A DNA stretch of 63,757 bases, filler included. It is 8 parts of 8 records of this genome, joined end to end, with 100 filler letters (N's around TTAATTAATTAA, not from the genome) between each part and the next. Parts side by side here need not be neighbours in the genome. Positions count along the whole stretch, not along the records: positions 16,773 to 26,188 come from SRR20825010_2175; 7 more parts are not named here. One strand, written 5' to 3'. The notes under the pieces are model-generated. The model was not told the DNA's origin. It searched no databases and saw only the letters and a list, made by a program, of their open reading frames with translations. Positions 1 through 35,461 of the stretch are shown here, piece by piece (positions within the stretch are counted from its first letter, which is position 1; every line of letters starts with the position of its first letter). The position numbers and the translations under genes are program-made.

Positions 1-104
1 ATTCCCCAGAGCCTGTTCTGAGTATATCGAGGTGTTCTACGTCGAAATGGATTAAATCATCTTTAATTTGAATACCTCGTAGACTTGCCTTGAGGTAGTT
101 GATT
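1..104. repeat. Intergenic REP/MITE-like repeat; nt 1-43 recur at 16630-16672
   Basis: attccccagagcctgttctgagtatatcgaggtgttctacgtc matches 16630-16672 at 40/43; hairpin tacctcg...tgaggta at about 73-97. Confidence 0.7.
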
Positions 105-147
105 ATTTTGATATTTACTTTTGTGGCCATTTTTTCAGTTTCTCCTT

Positions 148-1086: not shown

Positions 1087-1090
1087 TTCA

Positions 1091-2236: not shown

Positions 2237-2406
2237 ATTTATATAGTGAAGACTAATAGTCATCTTACGCAAATTAAAAGAAAATAATTCGAAAATAAAA
2301 ATTATCACATAAGCTTTTTATTTTCGTTTTATATGTTTTTTTGTGTTTTTAAAACAATTTCGAAAGTTAAATATTTATTATTTTTTGTTTAATTGTAATA
2401 TTTTTA

Positions 2407-2449
2407 TACATTGCAATGTAAATGAAAGTTTTTGTTGTGTGTATGTTTG
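2407..2449. promoter_or_regulatory. Perfect 14-bp palindrome and Bacteroidetes -7 box in the divergent agaS/susC intergenic region
   Basis: TACATTGCAATGTA at 2407-2420; TATGTTTG (TAnnTTTG) at 2442-2449 upstream of susC. Confidence 0.4.
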
Positions 2450-2524
2450 TTTAAAAGTTGTATAACATTGCTTTTTCAACAAGAATTTGAGTTTAACATA
2501 AATTACTAACCTAATTTTTTAATA

Positions 2525-5578: not shown

Positions 5579-5589
5579 AAAGAAATAAG

Positions 5590-7140: not shown

Positions 7141-7152
7141 ACAAAATATATA

Positions 7153-8649
7153 ATGAGTAATTTAAAAAAGATAATTATTCTGTTATTGTTATGTATAGTG
7201 GGGTGGGGTGTGTATTATATTACAGTTAATAATGTAAAAATAGTAGAAGTAGAGCTTACATCACCCGATAATTCTGCGCTTAAAGAAGATATTAGAATAG
7301 TATTGAATAAACCATCTTCTGTTTATATTGAATATTGGAAAGAAGGAGCTGAAAATAAATATAGAACTAAGACCTCTAAAAAGAAGGTGAATCATGAAAT
7401 TCACCTTCTTCTTCTTGAGCCAGAAGCAACATACCAATATAAAATTGTTGTAGAAGGACTCATCAATAATAGTACAGATGTTAAAACTTTTGAGACTAGA
7501 GAAGCTTCTCCTTGGATGGTGCATAATTGGATAAAAGAAGATCAACCGCACGACGCTACTGCACTGGGAGGAGGAATGGTAATGCTTTGTTATAGAGGAT
7601 TCCCAGGATACATAGCTATTGTTGATGGCAAAGGTACAGTAAGATGGTACTGGCAAGATGATAATCTAGGTGTTAGAATAGCGACTATTACTCCACGTAA
7701 TACTATTATTGCACTATTAGCCCCTGCTACAAAAGATGAGTTTAAAAAAACAACAAATGTAGCAAAAGCAGATGTTGCCAGTTATTATTTAAGAACTGGA
7801 AAAACAGGATTTGTTGGAGGAACAGAAATTGTAGAGATAGACCTTGAAGGAAATGAATTATGGCGCATAAATATAGAGGATAAAGGGATTGTATTTCATC
7901 ATGATATACAGATGAATGATAGAGATCAAATCATGAGTATTTATAGAGATTATAAAATGTATGATTTGAAAGGAATGGGCGCAGCTAAAGATACTTTATG
8001 GGGAGATGGAGTCATGATTATGGATACGCTAGGGAATGTAGTTGATAAATGGTCTGCATGGGATGTTTGGGACTTGTCAATAGATAAAAAAATAAAAGAA
8101 TATTCAGGAGATCGTTTTCATTTCAATTCGATAAGACTTGATAAAAATGGAAATTATTTACTATCAACTCCAATAGAGAATCAGGTATGGAATGTTAATC
8201 CGAGTACAGGAGAGATTGTATGGAAACTTGGAGAAGGAGGAGATTTTAAAATGGATGCCAATTCATATTTTAATTTTCAACACGATGCTCATTTTAATAG
8301 AGAAGGAGATTTAATGCTCTTTGATAACGGAGATTTCTCTCCCAACGACACTACAAAAGTTAACAAGTTTTCAAGAAGTATCTCTTTTACTTTAGATACA
8401 GTTAACATGAAGGCTACCACTAAGATCGATGCAAGACTACCGTCTAGATATTATACTTCAAGAATGGGAGGATCCATTTTACTTCCTAATAATAATATTT
8501 TACATACAAGTTCTAAGACTGGAGGAGTTGTAGTGACTAACCAAGAAGGGAAAGTGTTTTGGGCGTTAAATGCCCATTTTATCCCATACCGAGTAGAATA
8601 TGTACCACAAACAATGTGGTCAAACTATTTTAAAACAACCCAAAGATGA
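7153..8649 (+). CDS. Arylsulfotransferase (ASST) family protein with N-terminal Ig-like domain
   Basis: N-terminal membrane anchor, HHD, HFNS, IVWKLG, QHDAH and LFDNG motifs typical of ASST beta-propellers. Confidence 0.8.
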   Translation: MSNLKKIIILLLLCIVGWGVYYITVNNVKIVEVELTSPDNSALKEDIRIVLNKPSSVYIEYWKEGAENKYRTKTSKKKVNHEIHLLLLEPEATYQYKIVVEGLINNSTDVKTFETREASPWMVHNWIKEDQPHDATALGGGMVMLCYRGFPGYIAIVDGKGTVRWYWQDDNLGVRIATITPRNTIIALLAPATKDEFKKTTNVAKADVASYYLRTGKTGFVGGTEIVEIDLEGNELWRINIEDKGIVFHHDIQMNDRDQIMSIYRDYKMYDLKGMGAAKDTLWGDGVMIMDTLGNVVDKWSAWDVWDLSIDKKIKEYSGDRFHFNSIRLDKNGNYLLSTPIENQVWNVNPSTGEIVWKLGEGGDFKMDANSYFNFQHDAHFNREGDLMLFDNGDFSPNDTTKVNKFSRSISFTLDTVNMKATTKIDARLPSRYYTSRMGGSILLPNNNILHTSSKTGGVVVTNQEGKVFWALNAHFIPYRVEYVPQTMWSNYFKTTQR

Positions 8650-11633
8650 CCACGATAAAAAGAAAATATAAATTTTTAATACTTAGCCTATTTATAACAA
8701 TAGTTAATACGCTATACGCTCAACAACATATATATCCTCCTCAAGAAGAATTGTGGAATTCAGATTCATTGGGGACTCAAAGAGCTGTAATAAGAGTGAA
8801 CGAAAAAGTAGATGATGTTACTGTTGAAATTAATTGGAGGAATAGGAACGTTGATACAAACGGAAGAGTTATTGTGTTGGATAGTACAACTCAAAAAGTT
8901 ATTACGGATGTAGTACCTATAAATTTTTCTTCTGAAAAAGGAATTGTGAAGTTTAAAACATCAAAAGAAGAAGGGAACTTTTATGTGTATTATTTACCAT
9001 ATAAATTAGACGGTAGAACCAATTACCCAACAGCTACTTATTTCCAGAATAATAGTCAATTAGACACAGAATATACTATTTCAAATAGTAGTATAGCTAA
9101 GGTAATTCGCATTGAATCAGTAGATCAATTTAATAGCAATCAACCAATGGAGGTTATTGCAACCAATAAAGAGGTTGAAGAGTTAAGGAAGAAATATAAA
9201 AATGAGCCTTATTTAGTTTTTCCTGAAGATAGAACAAATGCAATAAGGATGAAGCATTACTTACCTCAAAAATGGTTAACGAAAGACCCGAGCTCGGTAT
9301 TTAACGATGAGGTGAAAAAAGGAGAAAATTATACTTTTCAATTAGGGGTTTGGGCAAAGGATGCCAATTTAAATGATATTGCTATCACATATTCAGACTT
9401 TGTTGATTCAGAAGGAAATAAATTATCTAAAGACTTACTAACGTGCTTTAATAAAGAAGGAATTAACTATTTAGGAGATAGCTTTACAAAAATAATCAAT
9501 GTTGAGAAAAATACTATTCAAGCTTTATGGTTTGGAGTAGATATTCCTACAGAAATTAGCTCAGGCACTTATAAGGGGACAATTACATTATCGCCATCTA
9601 ATAATGCAAAAACTATAATTGATGTAGAGCTTGTTGTTGTAAATGATACTGCTGTAAATAATGGTATAGATGAACCGTGGAAACAGACAAGATTAAAGTG
9701 GATAAACTCAACTTTAGCACAGGATAATTCGGTAATAAAACCTTATTTGCCTGTAGAATTATCAGGAAATAAACTGTCTATTCTTGGAAGAAAGGTAACA
9801 TTAGGTAAAAATGGGCTTCCAGACAAAATTGAAAGTTTTTTTACTGAAGAAATGACGTCATTAACAAATAAACCCAAAAATATTCTAGCCAGTCCATTTC
9901 GGTTTTCAATCAAAGAAGTAGGGGGAGAAGATTTAGAAATGAATTCTGAAGGTGTAGAATATACTAAAAAGGAGTCGGGAAAAATTCAGTGGAAAGCTAT
10001 AAATACTGCCCAAAATTTAACAATGGAAGTAATTGGGTCTCTAGAATTTGATGGTTTTATGAATTATGAGGTTAAAATTATTGCTGAGGATGATATTGAA
10101 ATAGAAGATATTTCTATGGTGGTACCATTAGAAGCGGAAAGTTCCAAGTATATGCTAGGGCTAGGCGAGAAGGGTAAAAAACTTCCTGAGCGTATTGATT
10201 GGAAGTGGAATGTAAAGCAGAAAAACCAAGACGGATGGTGGATAGGAGCTGTGAATGCTGGTTTACAATTAAGTCTTCGAGATGAGAATTACGAACGCCC
10301 TTTGAATACAAATTTCTATTTACAAAAACCTTTAAAATTGCCTACATCGTGGGGGAATGATAATAAGGGAGGAATTCGTGTTAAAACGAGTAAAAACATA
10401 ATAACATCTCAACATTACAGCGGAAAGAGAACAATGAAAAAGGGGGATGTTTTATTCTATAATTTTACTTTATTAATAACTCCGTTTCATACACTTCAAA
10501 CAGATGTGCATTGGAATAATAAATATTTTCATGCGTATAAACCAATAGATACTGTTATAAAAAGTGGTTCTAACGTAATAAATATTCATCACGCCAATGA
10601 GCTCAACCCTTATATAAATTATCCTTTTATAGCCACAGAGCAAATGAAAAATTATATAGATGAAGCTCATAAAAACAATCTAAAAGTTAAAATATATAAT
10701 ACCGTTAGAGAGGTTTCTAATCGTTTGTATGAATTATATCCCTTAAGAAGCTTAAATAACGAAGTTTTCTCCCAAGGAAAAGGTGGGGGAAGCGCTTGGC
10801 TGCAAGAACATTTACAAGATAATTATATTGCTGCATGGTATGTGCCTAAATATAAAGATGCTGCTATTATTAATAGCGGGATGAATCGCTGGCATAACTA
10901 CTATGTGGAAGGAATGAATTGGCTAGTTCAAAACATTGGAATTGATGGAATTTATTTAGATGATGTAGCTTTTGATAGAATAACAATGAAAAGAATAAAA
11001 CGAGTTCTTACTCAAGGAAATCAACCCGGACTCATCGATCTACATTCTGCCAATCAGTTTAATGAGCGTGATGGTTTTAATAATAGTGCCTATTTATACT
11101 TAGAGCATTTTCCTTACATAAATAGATTGTGGTTTGGGGAGTATTTTGATTATGAAAAAGAATCTCCAGATTTTTATCTAACAGAAGTAAGTGGAATTCC
11201 ATTCGGACTCATGGGGGAGATGCTACAAGATGGAGGTAATGCTTGGAGAGGGATGCTGTATGGTATGACTAATAGAATGCCATATCAAGATAAAAAACCA
11301 GACGGTATATGGAAAGTATGGGATGATTTTGGAATTGAAGGATCCAGTATGATAGGGTATTGGGTAGAGAAAAACCCTATAAAAACCAATAATGACAGAG
11401 TATTGGTAACCGTATATAAAAAAGAAGCCAAGGTGTTAATATCTATAGCTAGTTGGGATCAAAAAGATGTAGATGTTAAGTTGAATATTGATTGGGAACA
11501 ATTAGGGATTAAGGAAGATGGAATCAAAATATACGCACCTCCAATTAAAGATTTTCAAGAAGAGAAAACATTTAAGGTTGGAGAATCTATTTCTGTTGAA
11601 AAAAATAAAGGATGGTTAATTATACTGGAATAA
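8646..11633 (+). CDS. Secreted putative glycoside hydrolase (DUF6067 / GH123-like)
   Basis: Signal peptide; NVINIHHANELNPYINYPF, IDGIYLDD, IDLHSANQF, LWFGE motifs; PUL context. Confidence 0.7.
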   Translation: MTTIKRKYKFLILSLFITIVNTLYAQQHIYPPQEELWNSDSLGTQRAVIRVNEKVDDVTVEINWRNRNVDTNGRVIVLDSTTQKVITDVVPINFSSEKGIVKFKTSKEEGNFYVYYLPYKLDGRTNYPTATYFQNNSQLDTEYTISNSSIAKVIRIESVDQFNSNQPMEVIATNKEVEELRKKYKNEPYLVFPEDRTNAIRMKHYLPQKWLTKDPSSVFNDEVKKGENYTFQLGVWAKDANLNDIAITYSDFVDSEGNKLSKDLLTCFNKEGINYLGDSFTKIINVEKNTIQALWFGVDIPTEISSGTYKGTITLSPSNNAKTIIDVELVVVNDTAVNNGIDEPWKQTRLKWINSTLAQDNSVIKPYLPVELSGNKLSILGRKVTLGKNGLPDKIESFFTEEMTSLTNKPKNILASPFRFSIKEVGGEDLEMNSEGVEYTKKESGKIQWKAINTAQNLTMEVIGSLEFDGFMNYEVKIIAEDDIEIEDISMVVPLEAESSKYMLGLGEKGKKLPERIDWKWNVKQKNQDGWWIGAVNAGLQLSLRDENYERPLNTNFYLQKPLKLPTSWGNDNKGGIRVKTSKNIITSQHYSGKRTMKKGDVLFYNFTLLITPFHTLQTDVHWNNKYFHAYKPIDTVIKSGSNVINIHHANELNPYINYPFIATEQMKNYIDEAHKNNLKVKIYNTVREVSNRLYELYPLRSLNNEVFSQGKGGGSAWLQEHLQDNYIAAWYVPKYKDAAIINSGMNRWHNYYVEGMNWLVQNIGIDGIYLDDVAFDRITMKRIKRVLTQGNQPGLIDLHSANQFNERDGFNNSAYLYLEHFPYINRLWFGEYFDYEKESPDFYLTEVSGIPFGLMGEMLQDGGNAWRGMLYGMTNRMPYQDKKPDGIWKVWDDFGIEGSSMIGYWVEKNPIKTNNDRVLVTVYKKEAKVLISIASWDQKDVDVKLNIDWEQLGIKEDGIKIYAPPIKDFQEEKTFKVGESISVEKNKGWLIILE

Positions 11634-11635
11634 TT

Positions 11636-14572
11636 ATGAAAAAATTTCTATTAATATTAATTATTGTTTGTGTGAATAATTTATTCGCTCAGCAAGATGT
11701 CTCATATAAAGAATATCTAAAGGAATATAAAACATATCCATTTTCAGATCCAGACCCAATTCCTGCGTTACCTAAATTATATCCATATTTTAGATTTGAT
11801 GGTTTTACTACAGAATCTATTCAGAAAAAATGGAAAGTAGTAGAATTGGAGAATGAATATATCAAAGTTTTTATAATGCCTGAAATAGGCGGTAAGATAT
11901 GGACTGCTTATGATAAAATAAATGAAAAATATTTCTTATATAATAATGAAGTTGTAAAATTTCGAGATATAGCTTTGAGAGGACCATGGGTAAGTGGTGG
12001 AATAGAAGCTAATTATGGGGTTATTGGGCACACACCAAACAGCGCTACCCCTGTAGATTATACCACTATAACAAAGGAAGACGGCAGCGTAAGTTGTATA
12101 GTAAGTGTGTTAGATTTACTCACTAGAACCCGTTGGATTTTAGATATTAACCTAAAAAAGGACAATGCGTATTTTACAACACAATCATATTGGTTTAACC
12201 AAACAGGTGTAGAACAACCATATTATACATGGATGAATGTAGGAATTCCAGCTGGAGATGATTTGAGGTTTCTATACCCTGGCAGTAATTATATCGGACA
12301 TGATGGAGTAGACCATAATTGGCAGCTAAATTCAGAAAATAGGGATCTTTCTTTATATACCGAAAACAATTTTGACGGTTCAAAATCCTACCATGTGTTA
12401 GGAGCGCACAGCAAATATTTTGGCGCCTTATGGAAAGATCAAGATTACGGAATGATACATTATGCAAAAAGAGGAGATAAGTTAGGAAAGAAAATTTTTC
12501 TGTGGGCTCAATCAGATCAAGGTAAAATATGGGAAGATTTATTAACAGATACAAGTGGTCAATATGTAGAAATACAAAGTGGAAGATTATTTAATCAAAA
12601 TATTCCGCTAAGTAGCCAAACACCATTTAAACAATTAGGATTTAATTCGTATAGTAGCGAAACATGGAAAGAGTATTGGTATCCTTTTGCTAAAATTAAA
12701 GGATTTACGCAAGCTAGTAAAAGTGGGGCTTTTACTATTGAAATAGAAGAAGATGAATTACAACTTCAATTTTCGCCTGTAAAGAGAATAAAAGGGGACT
12801 TAGTGCTAATTGATACTGAAGGAAAAGAAATTTATAAAGAACCAATAGAGGCACAACCTTTAGAGGTTTATAGAAGAAGCATTTCTATACCTAGTAATTC
12901 ACATGTTAAGTATCTTGAAATAGATGGGGATTATATAGATTTATTGGTAAAAAATGAAAAGAAGTTAAGTAGGCCTCTATCAATTTCAAAAGAATTTGAT
13001 CATGATAGTTATTATGCATTATATCTAGAAGGAAGAGACTATTATCGTTTTCGAGATTATAAAATGGCAGAGAATAAAATACAAGCATCTTTAAAATTGA
13101 ATAACTCTTTTATTCCATCTTTAGTAGAAATGTCTAAAATTAAACTCTTTAAAATGGAATACGATTCTGCTTTCTATTACTCCAAAAAGGCATTAAGTAT
13201 AGACACTTATAATGGAGATGCCAATTACTACTATGGTAAAGCGGCATCCTACATAAATAAACCGTATGATGCTTTAGATGGTTATGAAGTAGCGGCATTA
13301 ACTCCAGTCAATAGAAATGCAGCCTATACGCAATTGAGTAAAGTTTATTTAAAAATAGGTGATTTATATGAAGCTCAAGATTACGGATTACGAGCCTTAA
13401 ACGAAGACCCAGAAAATATAGATGCTTTTAAATTACTATATGTCATCGCTAGGCATAAAGAGGATGTAGATGCAATTAATTTTTATCAGCAAAAAATAAA
13501 TAAGATAAACCCTTTAAGTCACTTCTTAAAGTTCGAATCTTATTTTAAAGACAAGTCTATTTTTAATAGAGATAAATTTGTAAATAATATTCAAAATGAA
13601 ATGCCTGCTGAAACATTTCTTGAATTAGCTATGTGGTACTATAGTATAGGTCTAAATACTGAAAGTATAGAAGTTTTAAAGTTGGCGCCGAAAAATGCTT
13701 TGAACTTATATTGGCTTAGTTATTTATCTAAAGATAGGAGAACTTCAAGCGAGTATTATGAGGAAGCAGAGAAACAGTCTTTAGATTTTGTTTTTCCTTT
13801 TAGAGAAGAGACTGCATGTATGCTAAAGGAACTAAATGCTAAAAAGGATTCATGGAAAACAAATTATTTGTTGGCATTGATACATTCATTTAAAGGAAAT
13901 AATGATATAGCGAATGACTTATTGAATGATGAAAATGTGAATTTTGCTCCATATTATATAATTAAAGAAAGATTAGATATAGAAGCCAGTATCAATACAA
14001 AAATGTCTTATATAAAAAAGGCTATGGAGATAGATGCTTCTCAATGGCGGTATAAAATGATTTATAGTAACTTATTATATAAATCGGGACAAAAAAAACA
14101 GGCAATAGAGATACTTGAAAAAGAATATTATAAGAATGATGATAATTATATTGTAGGTCTACGATTAATTAAGTTTTTAATGATGAATAATCAGTATGAA
14201 AAGGCAGAATCTTTTTTGACCAATGTTAATGTTTTACCATTTGAAGGCGCTACAGATGGGCAAAAATATTATAGGCAAACTAAATTGATGTTGGCTTATC
14301 ACGAATACAAAAAAGGTGATTATTCCAATGCGTTAAGTAAAATTGAAGAGAGTGAAGAATGGCCTAAAACATTAGGGGTAGGGAAGCCTTATGTGAATAT
14401 GATTGATCTTTCAATCGAAAACTCTATGAGAGTTTTAATATATGAAAAGATGAAAAATAACGAACTTATGGATGGTTATAAAGATGAGTTAGGAGAAAAC
14501 TTAATAGATCAAAACAATATATTGGAGAATATTAAGAAAATTTCTTTTAAGGGAGACGATTATTTATTTTAA
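11636..14572 (+). CDS. DUF5107 domain TPR-containing secreted protein
   Basis: Signal peptide MKKFLL; LENEYIKVFIMPEIGGKIW, ALRGPWVSGGIEAN, YVEIQSG motifs; helical TPR-like C-half. Confidence 0.8.
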   Translation: MKKFLLILIIVCVNNLFAQQDVSYKEYLKEYKTYPFSDPDPIPALPKLYPYFRFDGFTTESIQKKWKVVELENEYIKVFIMPEIGGKIWTAYDKINEKYFLYNNEVVKFRDIALRGPWVSGGIEANYGVIGHTPNSATPVDYTTITKEDGSVSCIVSVLDLLTRTRWILDINLKKDNAYFTTQSYWFNQTGVEQPYYTWMNVGIPAGDDLRFLYPGSNYIGHDGVDHNWQLNSENRDLSLYTENNFDGSKSYHVLGAHSKYFGALWKDQDYGMIHYAKRGDKLGKKIFLWAQSDQGKIWEDLLTDTSGQYVEIQSGRLFNQNIPLSSQTPFKQLGFNSYSSETWKEYWYPFAKIKGFTQASKSGAFTIEIEEDELQLQFSPVKRIKGDLVLIDTEGKEIYKEPIEAQPLEVYRRSISIPSNSHVKYLEIDGDYIDLLVKNEKKLSRPLSISKEFDHDSYYALYLEGRDYYRFRDYKMAENKIQASLKLNNSFIPSLVEMSKIKLFKMEYDSAFYYSKKALSIDTYNGDANYYYGKAASYINKPYDALDGYEVAALTPVNRNAAYTQLSKVYLKIGDLYEAQDYGLRALNEDPENIDAFKLLYVIARHKEDVDAINFYQQKINKINPLSHFLKFESYFKDKSIFNRDKFVNNIQNEMPAETFLELAMWYYSIGLNTESIEVLKLAPKNALNLYWLSYLSKDRRTSSEYYEEAEKQSLDFVFPFREETACMLKELNAKKDSWKTNYLLALIHSFKGNNDIANDLLNDENVNFAPYYIIKERLDIEASINTKMSYIKKAMEIDASQWRYKMIYSNLLYKSGQKKQAIEILEKEYYKNDDNYIVGLRLIKFLMMNNQYEKAESFLTNVNVLPFEGATDGQKYYRQTKLMLAYHEYKKGDYSNALSKIEESEEWPKTLGVGKPYVNMIDLSIENSMRVLIYEKMKNNELMDGYKDELGENLIDQNNILENIKKISFKGDDYLF

Positions 14573-14613
14573 TTAGTAAATATCGCTAAAAGCATTCAGT
14601 TAACTTTTTTTAA

Positions 14614-15950
14614 ATGAAGAAAAAAAAACATATTTATCAGTTTTAATAACCATTTGCTCGGTTATACTTTTTAGTTGTAACACTGATGGAGAAACCAAAG
14701 AAGTTATAATAGAAGAAGTTATTAATCCGCCAAGTATTATTCTTGCTAAGGGAAATAGTTGGGTTGTTGGAGATATTGCTAGTAATGAAGAAATTATTAC
14801 AGAAGATGGAATTCGTAATTGGAAGGATTTAGATACAAAAATTCGTACGTATTTTAAGGTAAATACTTCGGGACAAATAAAAGTAAGTCTTAAAGCACAA
14901 GCCGTAGAAGGTTCTTCTGTAGTAACTATTGCATTAGGAGATCAGCAGAAAGAGGTGGAAATCTCCAATACCGATTTTCAAACTCTTGAAGCTGGGATGT
15001 TTTCTGTAGAAAAGGCAGGGTACTATTTTTTAGAAATACAAGGGAAGTCTAATACTGGAGAAACTATTGCAGATATAGATAGTTTTACGTTAGAAGGTTC
15101 TGCATTAAATGAAGGCATTACTTATGTAAAAGAAGACTTTTATTGGGGTAGAAGAGGACCATCTGTCCACTTAAACTATACAGCTCCAGAAGGAAAAGAC
15201 ATTGTGTGGTTTTATAATGAAATTACAGTACCAGAAGGAGACGATACTTTAGGTTCATATTTTATGGCGAATGGTTTTGCTGAAGGATACTTTGGGATGC
15301 AGGTGAATTCTTCAACAGAGCGACGAATTTTATTTTCAGTTTGGAGTCCATATGAAACGCAAAATCCTGATGAAATTCCAGACGATTATAAAATTATTCT
15401 TTTAGGAAAAGGAGAAGGAGTCACCACAGGAGAATTTGGAAACGAAGGTTCTGGTGGACAAAGTTATAAAGTGTTTAATTGGAAAGCGGGGCAGACGTAT
15501 AAGTTTTTACTTAAAGGGAGTCCATCTACCAATAATTCTACCGATTATACAGCTTATTTCTTTGACCCTACTGAAGGGAGTTGGAGTTTGATTGCTAGTT
15601 TTAGAAGACCGCACACAAGTACTTATTTAAAAAGACAGCATTCTTTTTTAGAAAATTTTATTACCCAAACAGGAAATATAAGTCGTATGGGAGTATATGG
15701 AAACCAATGGGTGTATGATACCGAAGGAGAGTGGCATGAATTAACCGAAGCTAAATTTACAGCAGATGCTACAGCAAAAAAAGGATCTAGAGTTGATTAT
15801 GCTGGTGGAGCTAAAGGCAATACTTTTTATATGAAAAATTGTGGCTTTTTTGATGATATGACAGAAATGAATACCATGCATACTAGAACGCCAAACGGAA
15901 AAGCTCCTGAAATAGATTTTGCATTACTACCAAAGGGTAGTTTGAAATAA
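14614..15950 (+). CDS. DUF5077/DUF3472 lipoprotein; start codon out of frame at an A9 tract
   Basis: Frame open from 14628 (TYLSVLITICSVILFSC lipobox) into the 14955 ORF; YWGRRGPSVHL, GYFGMQVNS, GEFGNEGSGGQS, SFLENF motifs; ATG 14614 is in another frame. Confidence 0.75.
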
Positions 15951-15988
15951 AAATTTCAATTTGTTAAATTGATAGTTAGTTTGTTGTT

Positions 15989-16023
15989 AAAGCATTGTTA
16001 GTTCCTGCTAACAATGCTTTTTT
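15989..16023. terminator. Bidirectional intrinsic terminator
   Basis: Stem aaagcattgttag / ctaacaatgcttt with T-run between convergent genes. Confidence 0.8.
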
Positions 16024-16610
16024 TATATAATACCATGTAGTCTAGCGTATTGAATTAACATGATGGTCTTTGCATCTTTTATTTCACCATTCTTTACCAT
16101 GCTTTCTGCATCTGTAAAAGAGGTTTCAAAAACTTCAATATCCTCATGTTCGCTATCGAGTCCGCCGCCTTCATGTGCTTTCATATTGGCGTTGTATTTT
16201 CCAATGTAGAGGTGTAACTTTTCTGTAACAGCACCAGGAGATGGATATATTTCGAACACTTTTTGTACTTCAGAAATTTTATATCCAGTCTCTTCGTCGG
16301 TTTCTCTGATGATAGATATTTCGGGGTCTTCATTTTCAATAATTCCAGCAGGAACTTCAATCATCATCCCGCTTTCATTACCATTTAAATAAGTTGGCAT
16401 TCTAAATTGTCTAGTTAAAACAATATTTTTTGTTTCGGGATTGTATAGTAAAATAGCAGCTCCATTTCCACGGTCGTATACCTCTCTACTAACTTTTTCC
16501 CATTCGCCTTTTTTGTTTTTAAACTGAAAATCAATTTTTTTTAACAGGTACCAATTATCCGAAAGAATGCTTTCTTTTTCTATTTTTATTTGATTGTTCT
16601 TCATTTTCAA
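16023..16610 (-). CDS. nudK: GDP-mannose pyrophosphatase NudK (Nudix)
   Basis: LSDNWY, REVYDRGNGA, QFRMP, Nudix box RETDEETG, GGGLxxExEDIEV, DAKTIML. Confidence 0.9.
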   Translation of the reverse strand: MKMKNNQIKIEKESILSDNWYLLKKIDFQFKNKKGEWEKVSREVYDRGNGAAILLYNPETKNIVLTRQFRMPTYLNGNESGMMIEVPAGIIENEDPEISIIRETDEETGYKISEVQKVFEIYPSPGAVTEKLHLYIGKYNANMKAHEGGGLDSEHEDIEVFETSFTDAESMVKNGEIKDAKTIMLIQYARLHGII

Positions 16611-16629
16611 ATCCCTCGTTGAGGGTTTT

Positions 16630-16672
16630 ATTTCCCAGAGCTTGTTCTGAGTATATCGAAGTGTTCTACGTC
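16630..16672. repeat. Second copy of the intergenic repeat, truncated by contig end
   Basis: 40/43 identity to nt 1-43, same orientation. Confidence 0.75.
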
Positions 16673-16772: not shown

Positions 16773-16848
16773 GGGAAATTTCCCGACATTTTCCGGAAAT
16801 TCCCGTAAATTTTCCCGTCGGAACTTTTTTCAACCTTTTCCGGAAATT
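16773..16848. repeat. Left-end low-complexity palindromic repeat (GGGAAATTTCCC / TTTTCCGGAAA type)
   Basis: gggaaatttcccgacattttccggaaattcccgtaaattttcccgtcggaac...ccttttccggaaatt. Confidence 0.75.
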
Positions 16849-17046
16849 ATTGTATATTCTCCCAGAAAGTATTCCATTATTAGTATGTATGTAAAATGAA
16901 AATTATTTAACCATGTACGTATGCGGTACAACTGATGCGTACTGCACATATACGTACATAGCACATACATAGTAGTTGGCATGGGTGTTAAACGTTATCT
17001 AAATTTATGTTGTTACGTACGTTACAATACAGAATATTTTAATCCT

Positions 17047-20000
17047 GGAAAGGTGTAACCCACGTACGTATTTGCGTAGAATTTGTGGAACCCATATCAT
17101 ACACGATGCTGTTACAAAGTGACACATATCAGGGTTGTACATTAATTAATAGTGTATAAGTATCACTCGCATACATTGCACGTAATGTATATACGTATAC
17201 TATTGTGATGGTTTTTTGTGAATACATTGTCGGATAATACTTACCGGAAAGGTGTATACACGTCTTGTACATGTTACAACTAAACACATATAACGTGTAA
17301 TCCTTTTATAACACAATACGCGGTGTACATACCCCGAAAGTCGTAACATGTTATGTTAATGTTGCATAGTAGTAAGTATTACTACATATACGGTGACGTA
17401 CTATACTTTGTTGCACACATGTAAACAGACCCCTACCCGTGTACACAGTTAGGTTCTGTCCCACTGTTAGCATTGTGTGTTGTGTAGTGGTGCATCAAGC
17501 CGTAGGTACGTGACTCAGCCAGGTAGGATCATGTAATTTAGTTTGTCCATAAATGTTATAATGTAATAACCTATATGGAAAGGTGCGCACAGTGTATAAC
17601 AACTCTCCAGGATGGGTGAGATACCTATGTTACATAACCGCAGTAAATGTACACCTTAAATACATTTGCCAGCAGTTTATGAAATTTTACCCGTGGATTG
17701 TCTTGTATGCAAAGCGTAAAATAAAAACGTAAACGTTGTGCATAACACGTGAATTTTACCGGTAAAGCCCCCGTAATTTAAACAGTGCATGAAATAGTAT
17801 CAATACTATACTGCTTGTATGTATCGTGCCGTGCCGTATACGATGAGATACAACTGTATATGTTCAAGATAAGTTTATGGTGTTTGTAGGTATGTTACAT
17901 ACATATCTCGGAAAGGTGCGTTACGTGTATATATGTACGTCGCGTTGTTACACACGCATCACACAAAAGGAAGCTACTACGTGTTTACACGGACATGCAA
18001 CGTATACCGGATATATGGTTATACGTGAGAGGTCGTAATTACCATAGCGCCGTTATGTAGTGCGTGTTACATTGTATGATTTGTGTTTATTATACAAACG
18101 CAACGTCATTTACGGAAAGGTGTTACGCGTTACGTGTAGTAGTACTGCCACAACACGGGACGGGTACCACCTATATGTGTAACACATGTATTAACATGTT
18201 TCTTCCCATAACCGACCGTACGCGATAATCTATTACCAGCATGTAACACTATATGCATGACTATGATATTGTACGATTTGTGTAGTTTAATTTGCGTATG
18301 ACGTAATTAATACTTGCCTGGGAAAGGTGTACAGTATACCACTAGTATCGTACAACCCAGGGGATTCTCCAGAACGTATTCCCAGTATGCGACTACGTAG
18401 GTTGTGTTGATGTACTTATCTGTATACGGTGTACGATATGCTGTACATTAATTTTAAATCGTATGTGATACATTCGATAACTACTCATCTAACGAAAGGT
18501 GCAAGATACGTACTTGAGTTATGGTTGTATAATATTATATACATAGTTGTTACCTTGGAAAGATATAACCATTGGGATGTAGTAAGCGGTATACCATTAT
18601 GTAACGATGCTAACAGCATACGTGAGTACTGTCTTTATAAAAAACAGGTAACTATAACACATACACCTTTCCAGCGTAGACACATAACGTACATAACAAA
18701 ACAAATTTCAACAAGCATAACGTAATGTGTATGTTGTGGTAACCTGAGGGGGGCGTATACCTCATACGTAGTTAAGCCATATCCCCCATAAGGTAATTGT
18801 TACTGCGGGCAGTGTTATCCATAGCGTACACAGTATTTTCGGTAGGTGACGTATTTAGTACTTACATGTCTAACTGCGTATATACGTATTACTATAAATA
18901 TCAATACACAAACGTAGAGTAAAACATAATACATGTGCCGATGTGTCTTGCTATTACACTAACATGACAAGTATGTAGTGCATCTTCCCGTACATAATGC
19001 CGTTTACGTGGGTAGTGCATACACAAAAACAGGACAAGTACCTACATGTACCCGCGGGATAAAAACAGTAACACCGATTGCATAACAATGTTGTACGTGG
19101 CTGGATGGAGATTCAGTTATGGTGTGCAATGTATCCCGATAATCTGTAGGAAAGGTGTGTCACTGTACTTGTGTTATACGTAATGCACTTACACATATGT
19201 TAATACACACCACCCCAATATATTATGTTTTCCGGATTACGTGTAATACAGTATACATTCAACTATCCTGGAAAGGTGTACAGTGCTGTACTTACTGTAT
19301 ACACCACGCAATACGTAGCAACGTAACACGTAAAAATCGGTATTGTATAATACGAGTATATACATGCCCGTACACTGGTGCGGGCATACAGCAAAACAGA
19401 CCACATATGCAGAGCACCCTACAAGCAATGTATCTTTCCAGGGAAAGCCAGCATTAATGTTATGTGCTAGCACACACACATATCACGTAAAACACATACA
19501 CCACACCGCGAACCCGGAATGTGTATACACAGCATGTGATGTAGTACATAAGGATGTAAGGTGGCCTCCCCATTATGTATATGTGTACTCGATTTTTTGT
19601 GTTTTTTGTAATAATACCCGTACAATGTTTACGTTGGAAAGGTGCATACATGTAAGTATGTTAATCACGTATGTGATTGACCACGTACACACCTAGTAAG
19701 ACAAGTAATATTATACCACGTAATATACGTACGGGTATCTTTCCGGATGTACCTCAATATGGTTTAATAACAATCATATTAACTACAACACGTGTAGTAC
19801 ACCCGTACGGTTAAGTACCCTGTTTGTCAGCTGTATAGATTACGTATACTATCATACTGCGGGAGTTATTACCACCCTGTAAATTGTAGTAATCACCAAT
19901 GTGAGTCTACAGGGGCTGGTAATACTGCCGGGGCATGTAGTATAACACCTTATACAACAACGTAATGTATACCAAAATGTTTACACCTTGACTACTAGAC

Positions 20001-23000
20001 ATACGTTAAACGCATAGCCGTGCAAATCACAAAAAACACCTGGATGGTGTGTACGTAACCCTCGTGGATTTCGTATGTACACACAGTATATTGGTCTGTA
20101 CTTACAAAAAAAAACGTGGCGCCATAGGGTGCAACTACGTGGGGGAGTGCTGTCATGGGATCGTATACACCTTTCCTACAGTAAGTAACTGCAGCAACGG
20201 TATTAACAAATCCAAACAATATAAAAAAAACTTCGGAGTACAGCACTATTCAGACTGCGTAAAATCGTTATATCGTTTTTTGCATCAGTTATATCCAAGT
20301 ATGGTATAAGACGCCACATACATCATGTATACTTAACGTACATACCCCTGGGTACACGTCTTGTCCGACAAGCAAGGTTGTTGGTATACGGTATACCACA
20401 TCGGATTCGGTGGGGGAACACATCGGTTTTTCCTCGGGAGTGGTGTGCACTGTAATTCTAAATTTTTGTTATGTATAATTTACATTACGTGGACGAAACT
20501 AATAGGAAAGGTGTATACATATATACACATATATCACAGGAGTGTCAACATAACGTCACTAATATAGTATGTGCATAACGTATTACGATAATTATGTATA
20601 TCCCATATATTTCGTAAGTCGTGCACAGTCCCTGAAATTACACGTTTTTTTTATATGTTTTTTGCACATCAAATGAGTTACATTACCTAGGAAAGGTGTA
20701 TACGACGTGCAACGTGTATTGTATAATGGTTTATTAATGGTACAGGATCCACATATTTTTCTACTGGGTGGTATACCTTACCCGGGAAAGGTGTACTTCA
20801 CATGACGGTGTATGCCTGTCCGGAGAGGAAGTTTACAACAATTTTTTGATGATACTTTCTTTTTTTTTGTTTGTTTATTCTCCACGGGCATGTATAGCAT
20901 TTAATGGAAAGGTGTACTTACGCATGTATGTACACATCCTACACGAGGAATTACATTAAATTAAAGACCACACCTTTCCAGTGTAACGTTAAAGCATAAC
21001 ATGTATGAATCCACATTATACGATAACAATATTAATATAACACTACGATGCAGACGCGGTTCAAGTGTACATACCTATACCCAACCCGGACCTTATAGTA
21101 ATATATATACGGTAATATACAACGTATTACATGTACACCTTTCCTACATGTTGCGTGTACTGATTATCCTAACGTCAAATCATAATACAAGTAGACACAA
21201 TATGTTACGTAATGTATGTATACTAGGTATATTGCGAAGACATTTAACCTCTGTATGCGTAGTGATTACACCTTTCCTGTAAAACCGTTACGCCACGATA
21301 CGGTACATCAACAAACAAGTACACGTAATAATTGTAGGTATTTTTATACACATCCCTTGTCACATTACTAACCGCCTATATAATATAACTTTCTATTTTT
21401 TATTGTGTTTTTTGTGTAAGCACTTACGGTTACGTTTTTCAGGAAAGGTGGGACATGCCCATACAAGTTATATATTACACTGTACAATATCCGTGTAGTG
21501 TATGTGACGTAGTGGTTGTACGTATACATTTAAACCTAGTGGTGCGTGCTTGTACATATAACATACTACTATTTTATTTTGTTTTGTGTAGACAACGGAA
21601 TGTAATTGATCCCGTTTACGGAAAGGTGTGTATGCCATACATGGATCCTGTATGATAGCGTACGTAATGTAAACTACGGGTGATTATATATTCCCCTATA
21701 GGGAATGATATACACCTTTCCTACAGGGGTTAGAAATAGTGTAAACTCTAAAAACACACAACACGAGCTAGATGATATCCCGCATACATATACAATGTGT
21801 CCACGATCTGTCCGGTAACGTTTTGCACGTATACTATGTGTAGGTTTCTATTTACTGTTCATTTCGAGATAAGTTACAACAAAGTACATACACAATACCG
21901 TTACGTTACTGCGTTTATGCAGGTGCCCGTAGCATACATTCAGAACGATACAATTACTAAGCGTGCACGAGTATGGGTAAGTAACCACACCATATTCTAC
22001 GACGTACGTGTAGTATGTATGCATGTATGTTCTACCGATACGTGTAGGACAACAACATTGTATTCATCGGAAAGGTGTAGACATAGTTGACCCAATATGT
22101 ATTTATATGTTGTGTTTACACATTACATGCAACACACCTTTCCTACGTAATCATACATACATATATATACACTACGTGTAAAATATCGTATGTTAATATT
22201 ATTACTCTATGTAACGTAAGATATCCACGTGGTGTAGTACATTTATATTAACCAATATTTAGGGAGGTGTAGAATACATATGCAGGTGTGAACGTACTAG
22301 GATGCATAGTATATCACCCCCGGAGCGTATACCGGATAATGCACACACCTGCGTATACACGTGGTTTATATCGTGCATTTAATCTTACCGTTATGTGTTG
22401 TATTTGTGTTGTGTTGTGCTTACTCGAGAATACACCATATAGGAAAGGTGTGCAACACGACACTGTACTACGTAAATCGTAACGCTGTGTGTAAACGTCC
22501 TCCCGCATGCATTACTGCATACGTGTGTTATACATATTTGTATACTATTATACTACCTAGTGTTAATTTGTTGCGTGTAATAAATATTAGCTGTGTGGTA
22601 TGTTTACCGGAACATTACATTAAAATGTGTGAATACAGAGTTACATCCCGGTATTGTGTATAAACTGCTTACGTATGTCACACCTTTCCTGTAGTAGTAC
22701 TTATGTATGACTTATACGAAAAACATCAAACCAAACTGCAATATGTGCAATAAACCCGATAAGAAAATGTGATGTCATACGCTGATGCGTTTACCACGCA
22801 CATACAGAACTACAGGGAACTGTCACGTATACATGTTTGTGTGCAAGCCATATACATTTCACGCAGATTTTACACGGCGGTGTTAGTTTTCTGTTTTTGG
22901 ATTGTATGCATACAAGCCGTAACTATTCTTCCAGGAAAGGTGTACATAATCATGTGTGCGATCGCGTAACTATCCCGTAATAGGGTAACATACTTTTTGA

Positions 23001-25895
23001 TACGTAATGCACAGTAACAAAGTGAACTTCTCCGGAAAGGTTAACATACTGTACACATTACGTTATACATGTAAGCATACACGCACGTAATGTTTATCTG
23101 TAGCTGCATATAACAATCAATAAGTCCTGTTAATAGTCGTGGACTTGTGTACGTGGAAGATGTTGATACTTCCCGAACAGCATCGTTATTCGTGGTACAC
23201 CTTTCCGTAAGCATACTCTGTAGACCTGTTGTACACACCATACGATTACTGGAATATTATACATATAACACTGTAATGCAGTCGTACGTATATGTGCTGG
23301 TGTTGTTACTGCAGTGTACAACGTTGATTGGTATAACATATTACATACAATATATATCTCTACAGGACGTATTATATTATACATCTCCGGAAGCCTACCG
23401 TAAGCAATGTATTTACGTTGTTGTGCTCTACTTTTAGGACGTGAAATGTTTTACTACATACAAAGGAAAGGCCTAGGTCTTGTACACATATATGTATACC
23501 CGATAAAGCTACACAGTCATACGTACATGTTGGTATATTGTATTACGTAGTACATGTTATAATATGGCCGTGTGTAGTAACGTTACGTTCAAGCGTTGTG
23601 CAGCATGCCATGTACATGATTAAGTGTACTTACGTGTATGTAGTGATACGTAACTGCGAGCGGTATGGTATGTACGCCAGGCGTTTTTCATGCGGTGTAC
23701 ACGTACCTCATACACGTATATACATTAATCTTTTTGTATTTGTTTATTTTTTTTGATATAACAAAGACACATGCATATTCGGAAAGGTGTATACGCGATG
23801 GGTTATAATAAGCACATACGTCCATAGAAACAGATGACTTACATAATATCAGTATTTAACCTGAGGTGAACATAACGATTTACAATGTGTGCTGTTGTCA
23901 GTAATTTACAAGCCACCCCAAACGCGTGTAGCGTAAGCAACTTTGCTCACCGTTAGTACGCGGGATACACCTTTCCAGTAAAATTAACAACACGGGTTTA
24001 ACTTATACAAAACAAACTATAACAACATATTTGTGTGTACGCGCCCCGGCATACGCACATGTTCCCAGACAAGTCACTACTACATGTTGTTACATTCATG
24101 TCTACACCTTTCCTATAACAACCATATACACGTAATACAGTTATATAAATATAACATGATTTACGTAACCATGTAGTATGTGTTCTTATAAGTATATCGG
24201 GTAACGTATCCGACCACGTTCTGTAAGGCTTACGTAGGCAAGTGTGTACTATATAGTGATTACAGAACATACCCTACGGAACGGGGTACCACTATATGCC
24301 GTGTAGCATGTGGTAACACACCTTTCCAACGTATTCACGTATGCCAAGTATACCAACATGGCTAAACTAGGACAAAGTAAGTTACGTACACAGATCTATA
24401 ACCGATATATCGATGGGTTTAACGTAACAAATGGCCCTTAACATGTCACTGTATACGCACACACCACATACGGAAATACTTGTGAACTACGTGTTGTGTG
24501 GTACAAGCGGAGTAATCTGCGATTACGAGGTATAGCATACATGCATAGTATGTAAGCACCCACACCGGAGTACCCGTGCACTTATTACGTTAACATACAC
24601 ACCGATCCCATGTAATACGATATACGTATGGTTCTACGTGTACCGTCTACATTGTGGTATGAGTTTGTTGACTGTATCCGGTAATGTTATCTACCTAGGA
24701 AAGGTGTACGTGCATACTTAAGTAATGTTGTACTTCTGTTACTTCAAATAACAACTACATGTAAACTACGATACACGTATAGCTTACATACTGCTATGTA
24801 TACGTGGTCAACGCATGTACGTAGTAATTATTAATAACGTGACGTTGTACAACACCCACGAGGTGTACTACGGTAGATCAGCTTATGTACGTATAATTGT
24901 ATTTTTTGTTTGTGATATCGTGTACACACAGAATGTAAGTGCATCCCTGGAAAGGTGTCGTGTACATCCCGGATACACATGTCTAACTATAACCCGTGTG
25001 TAGTATTATAAGTATACTACACATAGCGGTACGTTTATTTATATGAGTTAAAGACTTACATACACCGTTTAATACCAGTACACTAACGCACTCTGTAATA
25101 CTACACGCGTTCCCCAAGGGTGTACCTTATCCCGCAGGATGTAACGCGTACGTATACACAAGCTACACCGTTCGTGGGTGGGCAGTACAGGCTACATTTA
25201 ATGCAACGTGTACTAGTAATATACCTGTACAGAGGTTATAACATTTATACTTTTGTTTTTGGGTTCAGATGTGTTACGTTAAGTATAAACTTATATTTAC
25301 ATGGAAAGGTGTACTACTAGCATACTGCATATACGGTGGGGATGTATAACCTAGCAGAAGTGTAAACCCTTACTAACTCCGTGAGATGCATTACAGTGTA
25401 CCTATACCGGTTTTATATGTGTTTACTCTGTTCGTATTGTATGATTCCCCCCCGGGTATACTTACGAGAACTTACTTTCTTACGGTACTGTATTCCGGGG
25501 ATATCGTAACGTATACCATCCCTACACATCACACCTTTCCTAACATGCGCACTATATTTACGTAATACAAATTCAAAGAACAGAGAAACATGTGCGTGTA
25601 TTAATACCCACAGTATTTAATCCCGCACATTAAAGTATTACATATTAGTATGCGCCTGCATCAAAAAATTATCCCAGGTTGTGTTATTGTTTTGCGCCCA
25701 GATTAATATAATGTATATCTATTAGGAAAGGTGTAACCTGTTATACATATACGTATTACCAGTAAGATACCTTGTATGGATAACGATATACTGTCATGTG
25801 TTTTTATTAAACGTAGGTACATTACATACCACGTAGGCGGAAATAACTTTACATTTTGTAAATTACACATGTAGTACAAAACCCTACACCTTTCC
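17047..25895. repeat. Dispersed array of at least 37 GGAAAGGTG(T/C) motifs with unique spacers, both orientations, in a non-coding contig
   Basis: + copies at 17047, 17246, 17577, 17910, 18114, 18321, 19149, 19270, 19636, 20505, 20690, 20785, 20906, 21442, 21620, 22069, 22442, 22934, 23781, 24698, 24949, 25303, 25725; - copies ((T)ACACCTTTCC) at 18662, 20166, 20970, 21134, 21267, 21711, 22134, 22680, 23196, 23966, 24103, 24318, 25531, 25885. Confidence 0.93.
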
Positions 25896-26156
25896 TCTAT
25901 TGTGTGTTAATCCCATTATGTATACACATACTAAAACAACAATTAAAAAAAAGGAGGTACAACTACGTAATAAAAGTATATACCCTGTGTAATACAATAT
26001 GACGCGCTATGGATACGTCTGTTGCGTGGGATATACATCAACATGCCACACTAGGGTTGTATAGAATGATTATGTATCACAATAACGTAGACAGCTTATA
26101 AAAATTTTGAGGAAGTGTACATACATGTATGCACCGTTGTATACAATTGTACTGAC

Positions 26157-26188
26157 GAGAAAACTTTCGGGGAAAATTTCCGGGAAAT
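26157..26188. repeat. Right-end low-complexity palindromic repeat related to the left end
   Basis: gagaaaactttcggggaaaatttccgggaaat; its reverse complement atttcccggaaattttccccgaaagttttctc resembles 16788-16831. Confidence 0.7.
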
Positions 26189-35361: not shown

Positions 35362-35461
35362 NNNNNNNNNNNNNNNNNNNNNNNNNNNNNNNNNNNNNNN
35401 NNNNNTTAATTAATTAANNNNNNNNNNNNNNNNNNNNNNNNNNNNNNNNNNNNNNNNNNNN

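Follow-up and report, generated by a model that had tools for sequence, protein, structure and literature searches.

What kind of DNA molecule carries the same nine-letter word at dozens of places, on both strands, with unique sequence and no gene in between? The question is raised by positions 16773-26188 of a window of 63,757 nucleotides (the whole stretch of DNA that was analysed, filler included), which consists of eight joined contigs. This segment is a separate contig, bounded by N44-TTAATTAATTAA-N44 joints, and it holds an array of the 9-mer GGAAAGGTG, which the original prediction had described as gene-free, with unique spacers, and as a selected multi-site element. The analysis presented here indicates that the contig belongs, as a single chromosome, to a multipartite, high-copy and wholly non-coding family, in which the 9-mer belongs to a directional unit of about 80 nt. 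Tentatively, with a probability of roughly 0.45, these units are small-RNA mini-genes carried on kinetoplast-type guide-RNA chromosomes.

The abundance of the 9-mer is far beyond chance. GGAAAGGTG occurs exactly 38 times in the window, with 37 copies inside the contig (23 on the plus and 14 on the minus strand), a recount that agrees with the at least 37 sites previously claimed; the expected number for the whole window is 0.47 (standard deviation 0.66, maximum 3), and none of 100 dinucleotide-preserving shuffles reached 38. The mean spacing is 9416/37 = 254 bp, as against the predicted value of about 250 bp, and the usual extension of the motif was likewise recovered, GGAAAGGTGTA being present in 23 of the 37 sites and a T directly following the 9-mer in 33. 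One-mismatch variants of the 9-mer are restricted to two in the contig, CGAAAGGTG and GGAAAGGTT, at 18493 and 23034; both have a poor T/G tract (10/19; the tract is described below) and are probably decayed or chance sites. The lone copy outside the contig, at 37297-37305 (minus strand), lies within an open reading frame (ORF) of 849 amino acids (35414-37963, minus strand) of another contig and is taken as chance.

The absence of genes, as predicted, was borne out by several types of search of the contig. The longest ORF with a start codon comprises 117 amino acids and the longest stop-to-stop frame 120 codons; alternative stop-codon sets, with single or paired stops opened, produced no frame beyond the expectation from the low TGA/TAG content, and reversal of the sequence opened no longer frame. 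No transfer RNA (tRNA) was detected, and Rfam yielded two sub-threshold C0719 matches only (23.6 and 17.5 bits; the gathering score is 50). A Pfam scan under genetic code 4 started from the 156 stop-free frames with a minimum of 38 amino acids, less seven of exactly 38; the 149 frames of at least 39 amino acids thus covered matched no mitochondrial or other credible family, the best E-value being 0.0067. Searches by blastn of 72,556 plasmid and 50,697 phage records found no match, and a viral contig scan was likewise negative.

The spacers were equally free of internal structure. Among the direct and inverted matches listed for the contig interior (20 of 44 and 25 of 92, respectively), the repeats consisted of the motif with its flanks, the T/G tract, and weak chance-level similarities, and Tandem Repeats Finder (TRF) reported only tiny low-score arrays of at most 42 nt. 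Together with comparisons of interiors across the family, these searches show no mutual alignment of spacers, upholding the earlier view that they are unique. A conserved core of 11 nt, on both strands and with gaps of 18-832 nt, does not correspond to clustered regularly interspaced short palindromic repeats (CRISPR), in which repeats of at least ~23 nt share one orientation and spacers have a uniform length, and the short TRF arrays and non-matching interiors do not correspond to a tandem satellite, both of which had been set aside before. Nor is the element an array of iterons or of attC sites, as had likewise been concluded originally. A cassette array of recombination sites, which had been one of three candidate explanations, finds no support, as no inverted-repeat pairs bound cassettes and the order of orientations is irregular.

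The contig is not alone. When metagenomes were scanned for two 11-mers lying 167-197 nt apart, 55 loci were obtained, of which 23 form a family with the window contig, so that the proposed search for other contigs with the motif added 23 members. These loci contain 3.6-5.4 sites per kb on both strands, have a guanine-plus-cytosine (GC) content of 0.36-0.39, share the dinucleotide bias of the window contig and reach 11.2 kb; molecules measure about 9-11 kb and carry about 37-53 units each, on both strands. In the 24 family sequences (23 loci plus the window contig), likeness between members is confined to terminal repeats of at most about 450 bp at 79-96% identity, and the interiors are unrelated. 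No ORF exceeds 188 amino acids in about 128 kb of family sequence, no tRNA was found in 24 loci, and no Rfam family in 20 loci.

The remaining 32 of the 55 loci are not family members and represent chance matches or unrelated satellites. For example, L005 (38-nt period) and L022 (89-137-nt periods) are unrelated tandem satellites from other metagenomes with the 11-mer in every unit, so that possession of the 11-mer does not by itself identify a family member; L039 is likewise a satellite containing the 11-mer, judged by counts only. L020 passed the density and GC filter, but it lacks the dinucleotide bias and has a 267-amino-acid ORF, and it was excluded ahead of every count. A relative of the family, L040 (family terminal repeats, nine sites), falls below the filter and was used only for the terminal zone. 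A scan of genome contigs gave seven loci, each with 2-6 sites in bacterial-type contigs of 5.6-8 kb, which are taken as chance.

The architecture of the window contig at the largest scale is as follows.

16773..26188, no strand: whole contig, one molecule of the multipartite non-coding family, with a unique interior and 37 units
16773..16863, no strand: left terminal repeat zone of homo-oligomer repeats (GGGAAATTTCCCG type), its initial ~45 nt common to other family contigs
26150..26188, no strand: right terminal repeat zone, same type as at the left end but inverted

Assembly of the left end probably broke off within a terminal array of greater length. The inverted arrangement of the termini is observed repeatedly: the two ends of the contig match L054 in opposite orientation, L043 (10,871 nt) and L044 (10,027 nt) carry homo-oligomer repeats of the same type at both ends, and both ends of L044 match one sequence in opposite orientation by BLAST. 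In L040 the terminal zone runs on for more than 2.7 kb past the array in tandem units of about 340 bp, and the assembled molecules are therefore probably truncated within their terminal arrays. Positions 1570-4281 of L040 comprise at least three such ~340-bp units, each with ATTTACCGGCTGCAA, followed by A/T- and homo-oligomer-rich sequence, and L036 terminates in the same ATTTACCGGCTGCAA element.

The copy number and the natural origin of these molecules can be examined through their distribution among sequencing runs. Three runs of one study contain 0.99-1.00 of the sampled words of the contig, and four runs of four other studies contain 0.06-0.14. Four runs (X1, X4, X5 and X6) were aligned onto the contig; no habitat claim is drawn from X7, a run with a mine drainage label and a share of 0.06. 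In X1 the identical contig is present (9410 nt, depth 101), as are at least seven other contigs of 236-8520 nt, six of them of 6-8.5 kb, at depths of 232-954; these have the end of the contig in common, with an overlap limited to the first ~45-70 nt (within 16773-16845). Since they share only the end, the contig is one of several molecules with common ends and unequal abundance, the abundances being contig depths and therefore rough figures only. The family thus consists of many sequence classes with a conserved part (the termini) and a variable non-coding part, maintained at high copy with abundance varying between classes (depth 101 against 232-954 in X1), which is what is looked for in minicircle equivalents.

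Diverged copies were found in the other studies. X6 contains a colinear contig of 8635 nt with 570 substitutions and 80 gaps relative to the window contig, and transitions outnumber transversions by 385 to 201 when all aligned X6 contigs are counted together. X5 contributes a 2580-nt piece with 157 differences, and the X5 and X4 pieces (~270-2,580 nt) show roughly 2-9% differences by counts of other letters. Diverged, colinear and transition-biased copies elsewhere indicate an evolving natural sequence, and not a spike-in or an artefact. An assembly error, a synthetic spike-in, or a degenerate satellite or field of miniature inverted-repeat transposable elements (MITEs) had to be considered, as the identical contig is shared by three differently labelled runs of one study, which could suggest a contaminant. 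Independent runs, however, contain the contig or its diverged copies, 23 further members have different interiors, no tandem structure or spacer similarity exists, reversal opens no frames, and the plasmid, phage and Rfam libraries include no annotated repeat or spike-in that matches. As far as sequence data show, the artefact explanation is refuted, and its residual probability is negligible.

Two details of the X6 alignment deserve mention. A stretch of 197 nt (19299-19495) is absent from the colinear X6 contig, where the joint is marked by 9 nt of shared sequence, and this missing piece contains a degenerate site, GGAAAGATA, at 19431 (minus strand); from this gap, whole units seem to be gained or lost between strains. 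Additionally, an X6 joint connects the first 38 nt of the contig to its last 29 nt across 22 other letters. This joint is no evidence for a circular molecule, both of its sides being the same inverted repeat type.

As to the bearer of these molecules, the other seven contigs of the window (1-16672 and 26289-63757) are gene-dense and bacterial-looking, with GC from ~0.31-0.34 up to ~0.55. Because they differ so clearly, the window is regarded as a mixed bin or assembly in which the 9.4-kb contig is a foreign passenger. The runs yielding diverged colinear copies, which differ by roughly 3-7%, are labelled seawater, algae and sediment metagenome, and the host would accordingly be narrowed to the bearer of a multipartite high-copy replicon occurring in marine-type samples.

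The family makes it possible to resolve the anatomy of the unit, for which 561 sites were aligned on the box. On the strand of the 9-mer, a T/G-rich tract, poor in C and A, is located at a fixed distance, at -47 to -29; a pyrimidine-rich stretch at -7 to -1 precedes the 9-mer, which is followed by T (0.91) and A (0.62), with nothing positional further on. In the window contig, at least 15 of the 19 tract letters are T or G at 19 of the 37 sites, against 3.3% of background positions, and at least 13 of 19 at 29 sites. This tract about 40 nt to one side, together with the dinucleotide bias and the inverted homo-oligomer ends, goes beyond the features recognised originally.

Conservation and spacing define which parts of the unit matter. 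Across the family there are 575 exact 9-mers and 45 one-mismatch variants; the box is therefore under strong purifying selection, in line with the selected multi-site element first proposed. Neighbouring sites with their GTA sides facing approach each other to gaps of 18-25 nt (126 pairs), those with their tract sides facing are never closer than 129 nt save one outlier at 33 (125 pairs), and tandem neighbours have the bulk of their gaps from ~67 nt upward (303 pairs). From these three figures it follows that the indispensable part measures ~65-70 nt towards the tract and ~10 nt in the opposite direction. Because the essential span lies on the tract side, the natural reading direction is opposite to the strand used in the original prediction. 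Read towards the tract, the unit of ~80 nt consists of the box TACACCTTTCC, ~7 purine-rich nt, ~20 unique nt, an A/C tract, and then unique sequence; the A/C-rich tract extends from +28 to +55, with A up to 0.67 and G and T at ~0.05-0.15. The 37 unit cores of the contig are listed below, the strand being that of the proposed RNA, with the strand of the 9-mer given separately and the number of T/G letters in the 19-nt tract as the basis.

16979..17057, minus strand: unit 1 core; 9-mer 17047-17055 (+), tract 13/19
17178..17256, minus strand: unit 2 core; 9-mer 17246-17254 (+), tract 15/19
17509..17587, minus strand: unit 3 core; 9-mer 17577-17585 (+), tract 12/19
17842..17920, minus strand: unit 4 core; 9-mer 17910-17918 (+), tract 12/19
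18046..18124, minus strand: unit 5 core; 9-mer 18114-18122 (+), tract 14/19
18253..18331, minus strand: unit 6 core; 9-mer 18321-18329 (+), tract 14/19
18662..18740, plus strand: unit 7 core; 9-mer 18664-18672 (-), tract 14/19
19081..19159, minus strand: unit 8 core; 9-mer 19149-19157 (+), tract 13/19
19202..19280, minus strand: unit 9 core; 9-mer 19270-19278 (+), tract 13/19
19568..19646, minus strand: unit 10 core; 9-mer 19636-19644 (+), tract 17/19
20166..20244, plus strand: unit 11 core; 9-mer 20168-20176 (-), tract 16/19
20437..20515, minus strand: unit 12 core; 9-mer 20505-20513 (+), tract 13/19
20622..20700, minus strand: unit 13 core; 9-mer 20690-20698 (+), tract 16/19
20717..20795, minus strand: unit 14 core; 9-mer 20785-20793 (+), weak tract 9/19
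20838..20916, minus strand: unit 15 core; 9-mer 20906-20914 (+), tract 17/19
20969..21047, plus strand: unit 16 core; 9-mer 20971-20979 (-), tract 13/19
21134..21212, plus strand: unit 17 core; 9-mer 21136-21144 (-), tract 13/19
21267..21345, plus strand: unit 18 core; 9-mer 21269-21277 (-), tract 16/19
21374..21452, minus strand: unit 19 core; 9-mer 21442-21450 (+), tract 17/19
21552..21630, minus strand: unit 20 core; 9-mer 21620-21628 (+), tract 17/19
21711..21789, plus strand: unit 21 core; 9-mer 21713-21721 (-), tract 17/19
22001..22079, minus strand: unit 22 core; 9-mer 22069-22077 (+), weak tract 10/19
22133..22211, plus strand: unit 23 core; 9-mer 22135-22143 (-), weak tract 10/19
22374..22452, minus strand: unit 24 core; 9-mer 22442-22450 (+), tract 18/19
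22679..22757, plus strand: unit 25 core; 9-mer 22681-22689 (-), tract 17/19
22866..22944, minus strand: unit 26 core; 9-mer 22934-22942 (+), tract 17/19
23196..23274, plus strand: unit 27 core; 9-mer 23198-23206 (-), tract 12/19
23713..23791, minus strand: unit 28 core; 9-mer 23781-23789 (+), tract 17/19
23966..24044, plus strand: unit 29 core; 9-mer 23968-23976 (-), tract 16/19
24103..24181, plus strand: unit 30 core; 9-mer 24105-24113 (-), tract 11/19
24317..24395, plus strand: unit 31 core; 9-mer 24319-24327 (-), tract 12/19
24630..24708, minus strand: unit 32 core; 9-mer 24698-24706 (+), tract 16/19
24881..24959, minus strand: unit 33 core; 9-mer 24949-24957 (+), tract 16/19
25235..25313, minus strand: unit 34 core; 9-mer 25303-25311 (+), tract 16/19
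25530..25608, plus strand: unit 35 core; 9-mer 25532-25540 (-), tract 14/19
25657..25735, minus strand: unit 36 core; 9-mer 25725-25733 (+), tract 17/19
25885..25963, plus strand: unit 37 core; 9-mer 25887-25895 (-), tract 17/19

Among these, the facing pairs at 20906-20979, 22069-22143 and 21620-21721 have only 56-84 nt between their 9-mers, the family minimum being 18 nt. Orientation along the molecule is also biased: in four complete-looking molecules, units favour pointing towards the nearer end, with counts by half, in the orientation used originally, of 57:33 on the left and 40:53 on the right (Fisher p = 0.008).

A directional bipartite unit with a one-sided essential part of ~65-70 nt would, judged from sequence, suit tiny non-coding RNA units best among the three candidates initially offered. 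In the mechanism proposed, the box TACACCTTTCC would act as a short promoter of the type used by single-subunit organellar RNA polymerases, and transcription would begin ~25-30 nt downstream of it. Each unit would then give rise to a single small RNA without structure, composed of an A/C-rich 5' leader and a unique body, and closely facing pairs would be back-to-back promoters firing apart. Such RNAs may be guide RNAs of kinetoplast-type mitochondrial editing, which would make the molecules the counterpart of minicircles. What is observed is a box and an A/C tract at fixed distance, and the gene that follows is a putative guide gene. Folding was computed for the T/G-tract strand only and gave no excess stability over dinucleotide shuffles in three windows (z = -0.01, -0.10 and -0.30); an unstructured T/G-tract strand would match a guide-like RNA if the same holds for the proposed RNA strand.

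The guide-RNA mini-gene proposal follows from this anatomy combined with parallels in two described systems, the first being the guide-RNA-bearing kinetoplast DNA (kDNA) of Trypanoplasma borreli, by analogy the closest described system. In the sections of that report devoted to these molecules (PMC9679448), putative guide loci, 23 on average, lie on both strands of a unique inner region, their placement following 'no pattern', and the 9-mer RYAGGCTTT occurs 20-40 bp upstream of each guide locus. The same sections describe flanking inverted 'telomeric-like' repeat arrays, coverage differing about five-fold, and a suspected, unproven linearity of the molecules, which are termed 'ScaI-flanked contigs' (PMC9679448). 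On that description, T. borreli and the present family resemble each other in a non-coding unique inner region with small units on both strands and no placement pattern, in a conserved 9-mer at a fixed short distance, in inverted telomere-like terminal arrays, and in many distinct molecules of unequal coverage whose linear or circular state is unsettled. They differ in size (~10 kb here, ~70 kb in T. borreli), in density (one unit per ~210 bp, against ~23 high-confidence loci per molecule) and in the box, where TACACCTTTCC / GGAAAGGTGTA and RYAGGCTTT share at most an AGG core. In addition, the T. borreli loci were found through complementarity to edited messenger RNAs (mRNAs), whereas the present units are putative guide genes recognised from DNA sequence. 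An A/C-rich tract in the present family is a further difference.

The second parallel concerns that tract. In the passages on Perkinsela, the mRNA-complementary part of candidate guide RNAs is preceded on its 5' side by a tract rich in A or in A and C (PMC4669381), and the present units likewise have such a tract 5' of their variable part. For other early kinetoplastids, the relevant part of the account describes guide molecules that measure 0.6-2.2 kb and are linear or circular (PMC7859406). Perkinsela, Papus and Apiculatamorpha thereby resemble the family in high-coverage non-coding molecules, partly linear, with a conserved and a variable part and of marine occurrence, but differ in their size of 0.6-2.2 kb and in having 1-3 guide genes per molecule (PMC4669381, PMC7859406); for Perkinsela, the passages on these RNAs report no common upstream motif (PMC4669381). 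The minicircles of trypanosomatids such as Trypanosoma brucei are similar to the family in their many classes of high-copy non-coding replicon of unequal abundance and in having small genes whose distance to a short conserved element is fixed. Such minicircles are circular and ~1 kb in size; they carry 1-5 genes, each cassette being flanked by 18-bp inverted repeats, and contain the conserved sequence blocks CSB1-3. None of these traits (circularity at ~1 kb, 18-bp inverted repeats, CSB1-3) was found in the present family.

Several observations weigh against guide-RNA genes. Complementarity to edited mRNA is the defining property of a guide RNA, and the guide role here would rest on analogy; moreover, the recorded holders of the contig include no RNA-labelled run. 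On the proposed RNA strand, the unique sequence from +61 onward has purines at 0.47-0.50, which is no excess, it displays no 3-nt periodicity, and no composition sets a 'guide' segment apart from the remaining spacer. The units are essentially non-redundant: 18-mers shared between units amount to 49 pairs, almost all of them from the low-complexity tract (Markov controls gave 1-5), and transition-tolerant shared 36-mers to 8, against 0-5. Cascade overlap between the 5' and 3' parts of units was not in excess in the orientation expected, with 175 matches in the same and 248 in the opposite orientation at k = 12, from an incomplete sample of units and with a control contaminated by overlapping neighbours. 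CSB3 is a conserved minicircle 12-mer occurring even in the T. borreli repeats; in the 24 family sequences, the 12-mer pattern as generally known had no exact match and two one-mismatch matches, both in the interior of L036, and no CSB3-like 12-mer was thus identified. A density of about one unit per 210 bp also far exceeds that of any described guide-RNA molecule.

The composition of the spacers adds a further difficulty. The contig is strand-symmetric, with A = T and G = C within five bases, and its dinucleotide odds are strongly skewed (AC/GT 1.63, TA 1.38, CG 1.23, GA/TC ~0.5 and AG/CT ~0.63). Purines and pyrimidines alternate in ~0.62-0.68 of steps, against 0.5 expected, in the contig and in all 23 related loci, outside the box and the tract; the alternation fades within 4 nt, and the top hexamers in unique sequence are GTATAC, TATACA and TACGTA. 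For this extreme alternation of all spacer DNA, no explanation is at hand under the guide-RNA interpretation.

The same homogeneity of composition along the unit, with no product segment standing out, is what an array of sites without RNA products would lead one to expect. Here the box and the T/G tract would form a bipartite protein-binding or priming site, the spacer would be neutral filler, and a primase or an origin-binding, partition or packaging factor would be loaded at dozens of sites per molecule, so that the protein-loading array among the initial candidates is retained as an unlikely but serious competitor. It accommodates the missing redundancy and cascade signals, and the half-molecule orientation bias (p = 0.008) is expected if sites follow the direction of the replication fork. 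On the 9-mer strand, box and tract are both poor in C and rich in G and T, a composition also seen in single-strand-binding origin motifs, and the last six letters of the box (GGTGTA) are also the last six of the universal minicircle origin 12-mer as generally known. Set against these points, minimal spacings protect ~10-20 nt past the visible tract, and high copy is maintained across samples for a large number of distinct chromosomes whose interiors are unique, which is hard to understand if only the sites matter. Furthermore, no partition, packaging or origin system is known with ~45 dispersed sites on both strands separated by ~200-bp unique spacers.

If the units are transcribed, their products need not be guides of the classical kind. 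One alternative is that they are other promoter-tagged organellar mini-genes, such as extremely fragmented modules of genes, as in diplonemids, or guide or helper RNAs of a new class (acting, for example, in trans-splicing or substitution editing) in another euglenozoan lineage. The non-redundancy of at least 575 units suits gene pieces, and an assumed product of ~30-40 nt per unit, multiplied by 575, would give ~17-23 kb. Mitochondrial transcriptomes of about this order are known. A slight excess of T over A at +70 to +120 on the proposed sense strand points the same way. As described in the part of the report concerned with its chromosomes, the marine kinetoplastid SAG D1 has multipartite chromosomes with only short end regions in common, a GC content of 36% and many small modules per contig (PMC6792441), and is thus like the present family in its GC of ~36%, its end-confined similarity and its several units per contig; in Namystynia, a diplonemid, homo-oligomer repeat motifs surround the modules (PMC7049700), a further likeness. 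Diplonemids and SAG D1, however, have recognisable protein-gene modules on this evidence, and none was found in the present contig, where none of the 149 frames of at least 39 amino acids matches a mitochondrial family (pieces below ~25 amino acids would escape). The diplonemid layout of one or two cassettes within a large constant region (PMC7049700, in its description of these chromosomes) is absent here, the lack of 3-nt periodicity counts against coding pieces, and the alternating sequence translates into peptides rich in Y, V, C, T and H, unlike membrane proteins. This alternative is consequently considered improbable. About equally improbable is a variant of the guide-RNA chromosome interpretation, in which hundreds of non-redundant mini-genes (at least 575), each tagged by a promoter, would make up the 'guide chromosomes' of a lineage with undescribed organellar RNA processing other than classical U-insertion/deletion editing; they could, for example, be the long-sought guides of diplonemid-type module joining or substitution editing, with the alternation forming part of how they work.

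Still less probable is an origin outside an organelle, either as a nuclear or extrachromosomal eukaryotic small-RNA cluster resembling the 21U-RNAs of nematodes, which are PIWI-interacting RNAs (piRNAs), or as non-coding viral satellite molecules. Nematode 21U clusters comprise thousands of autonomous tiny units on both strands, each with an upstream motif at a fixed distance and a unique product, a layout that is the same in principle as the one observed here, and both options are compatible with an element found only in mixed or environmental assemblies. Those clusters, on the other hand, are nuclear, chromosomal and interspersed with genes, use another motif, and do not form discrete 10-kb molecules with inverted termini. 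The depth of 100-950 in X1, which varies from contig to contig, the discrete molecules of 6-11 kb and the common inverted termini suit an organellar or episomal multipartite genome better, and for viral satellites neither the viral contig scan nor the phage and plasmid records gave a match.

The interpretation as kinetoplast-type guide-RNA chromosomes is set apart from all described guide-RNA molecules by the size of ~10 kb, the density of units, the exact 11-mer, the A/C tract, the lack of CSB3 and the alternation. In the literature, the motif strings occur only in unrelated contexts such as primers; neither the box nor the layout is described in the kinetoplastid and diplonemid literature, the supplementary files of which may contain comparable sequences, and a 2026 preprint on kDNA content has nothing on guide-gene layout.

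Should the molecules be guide-RNA chromosomes, they would represent a third way of packaging guide genes, beside the 1-kb minicircles and the 70-kb molecules of T. borreli. The promoters of kinetoplast-type small-RNA genes have been called obscure, in a statement to that effect in PMC6789859, and the box would then be the clearest candidate promoter so far for such genes. Box and tract would also provide a simple sequence tag with which genomes of this kind could be picked out of metagenomes; at present they are wrongly binned with bacteria, the present window being an example. If the units are not guide genes, the family would be a widespread high-copy non-coding replicon under strong selection at hundreds of sites, which would be more interesting still.

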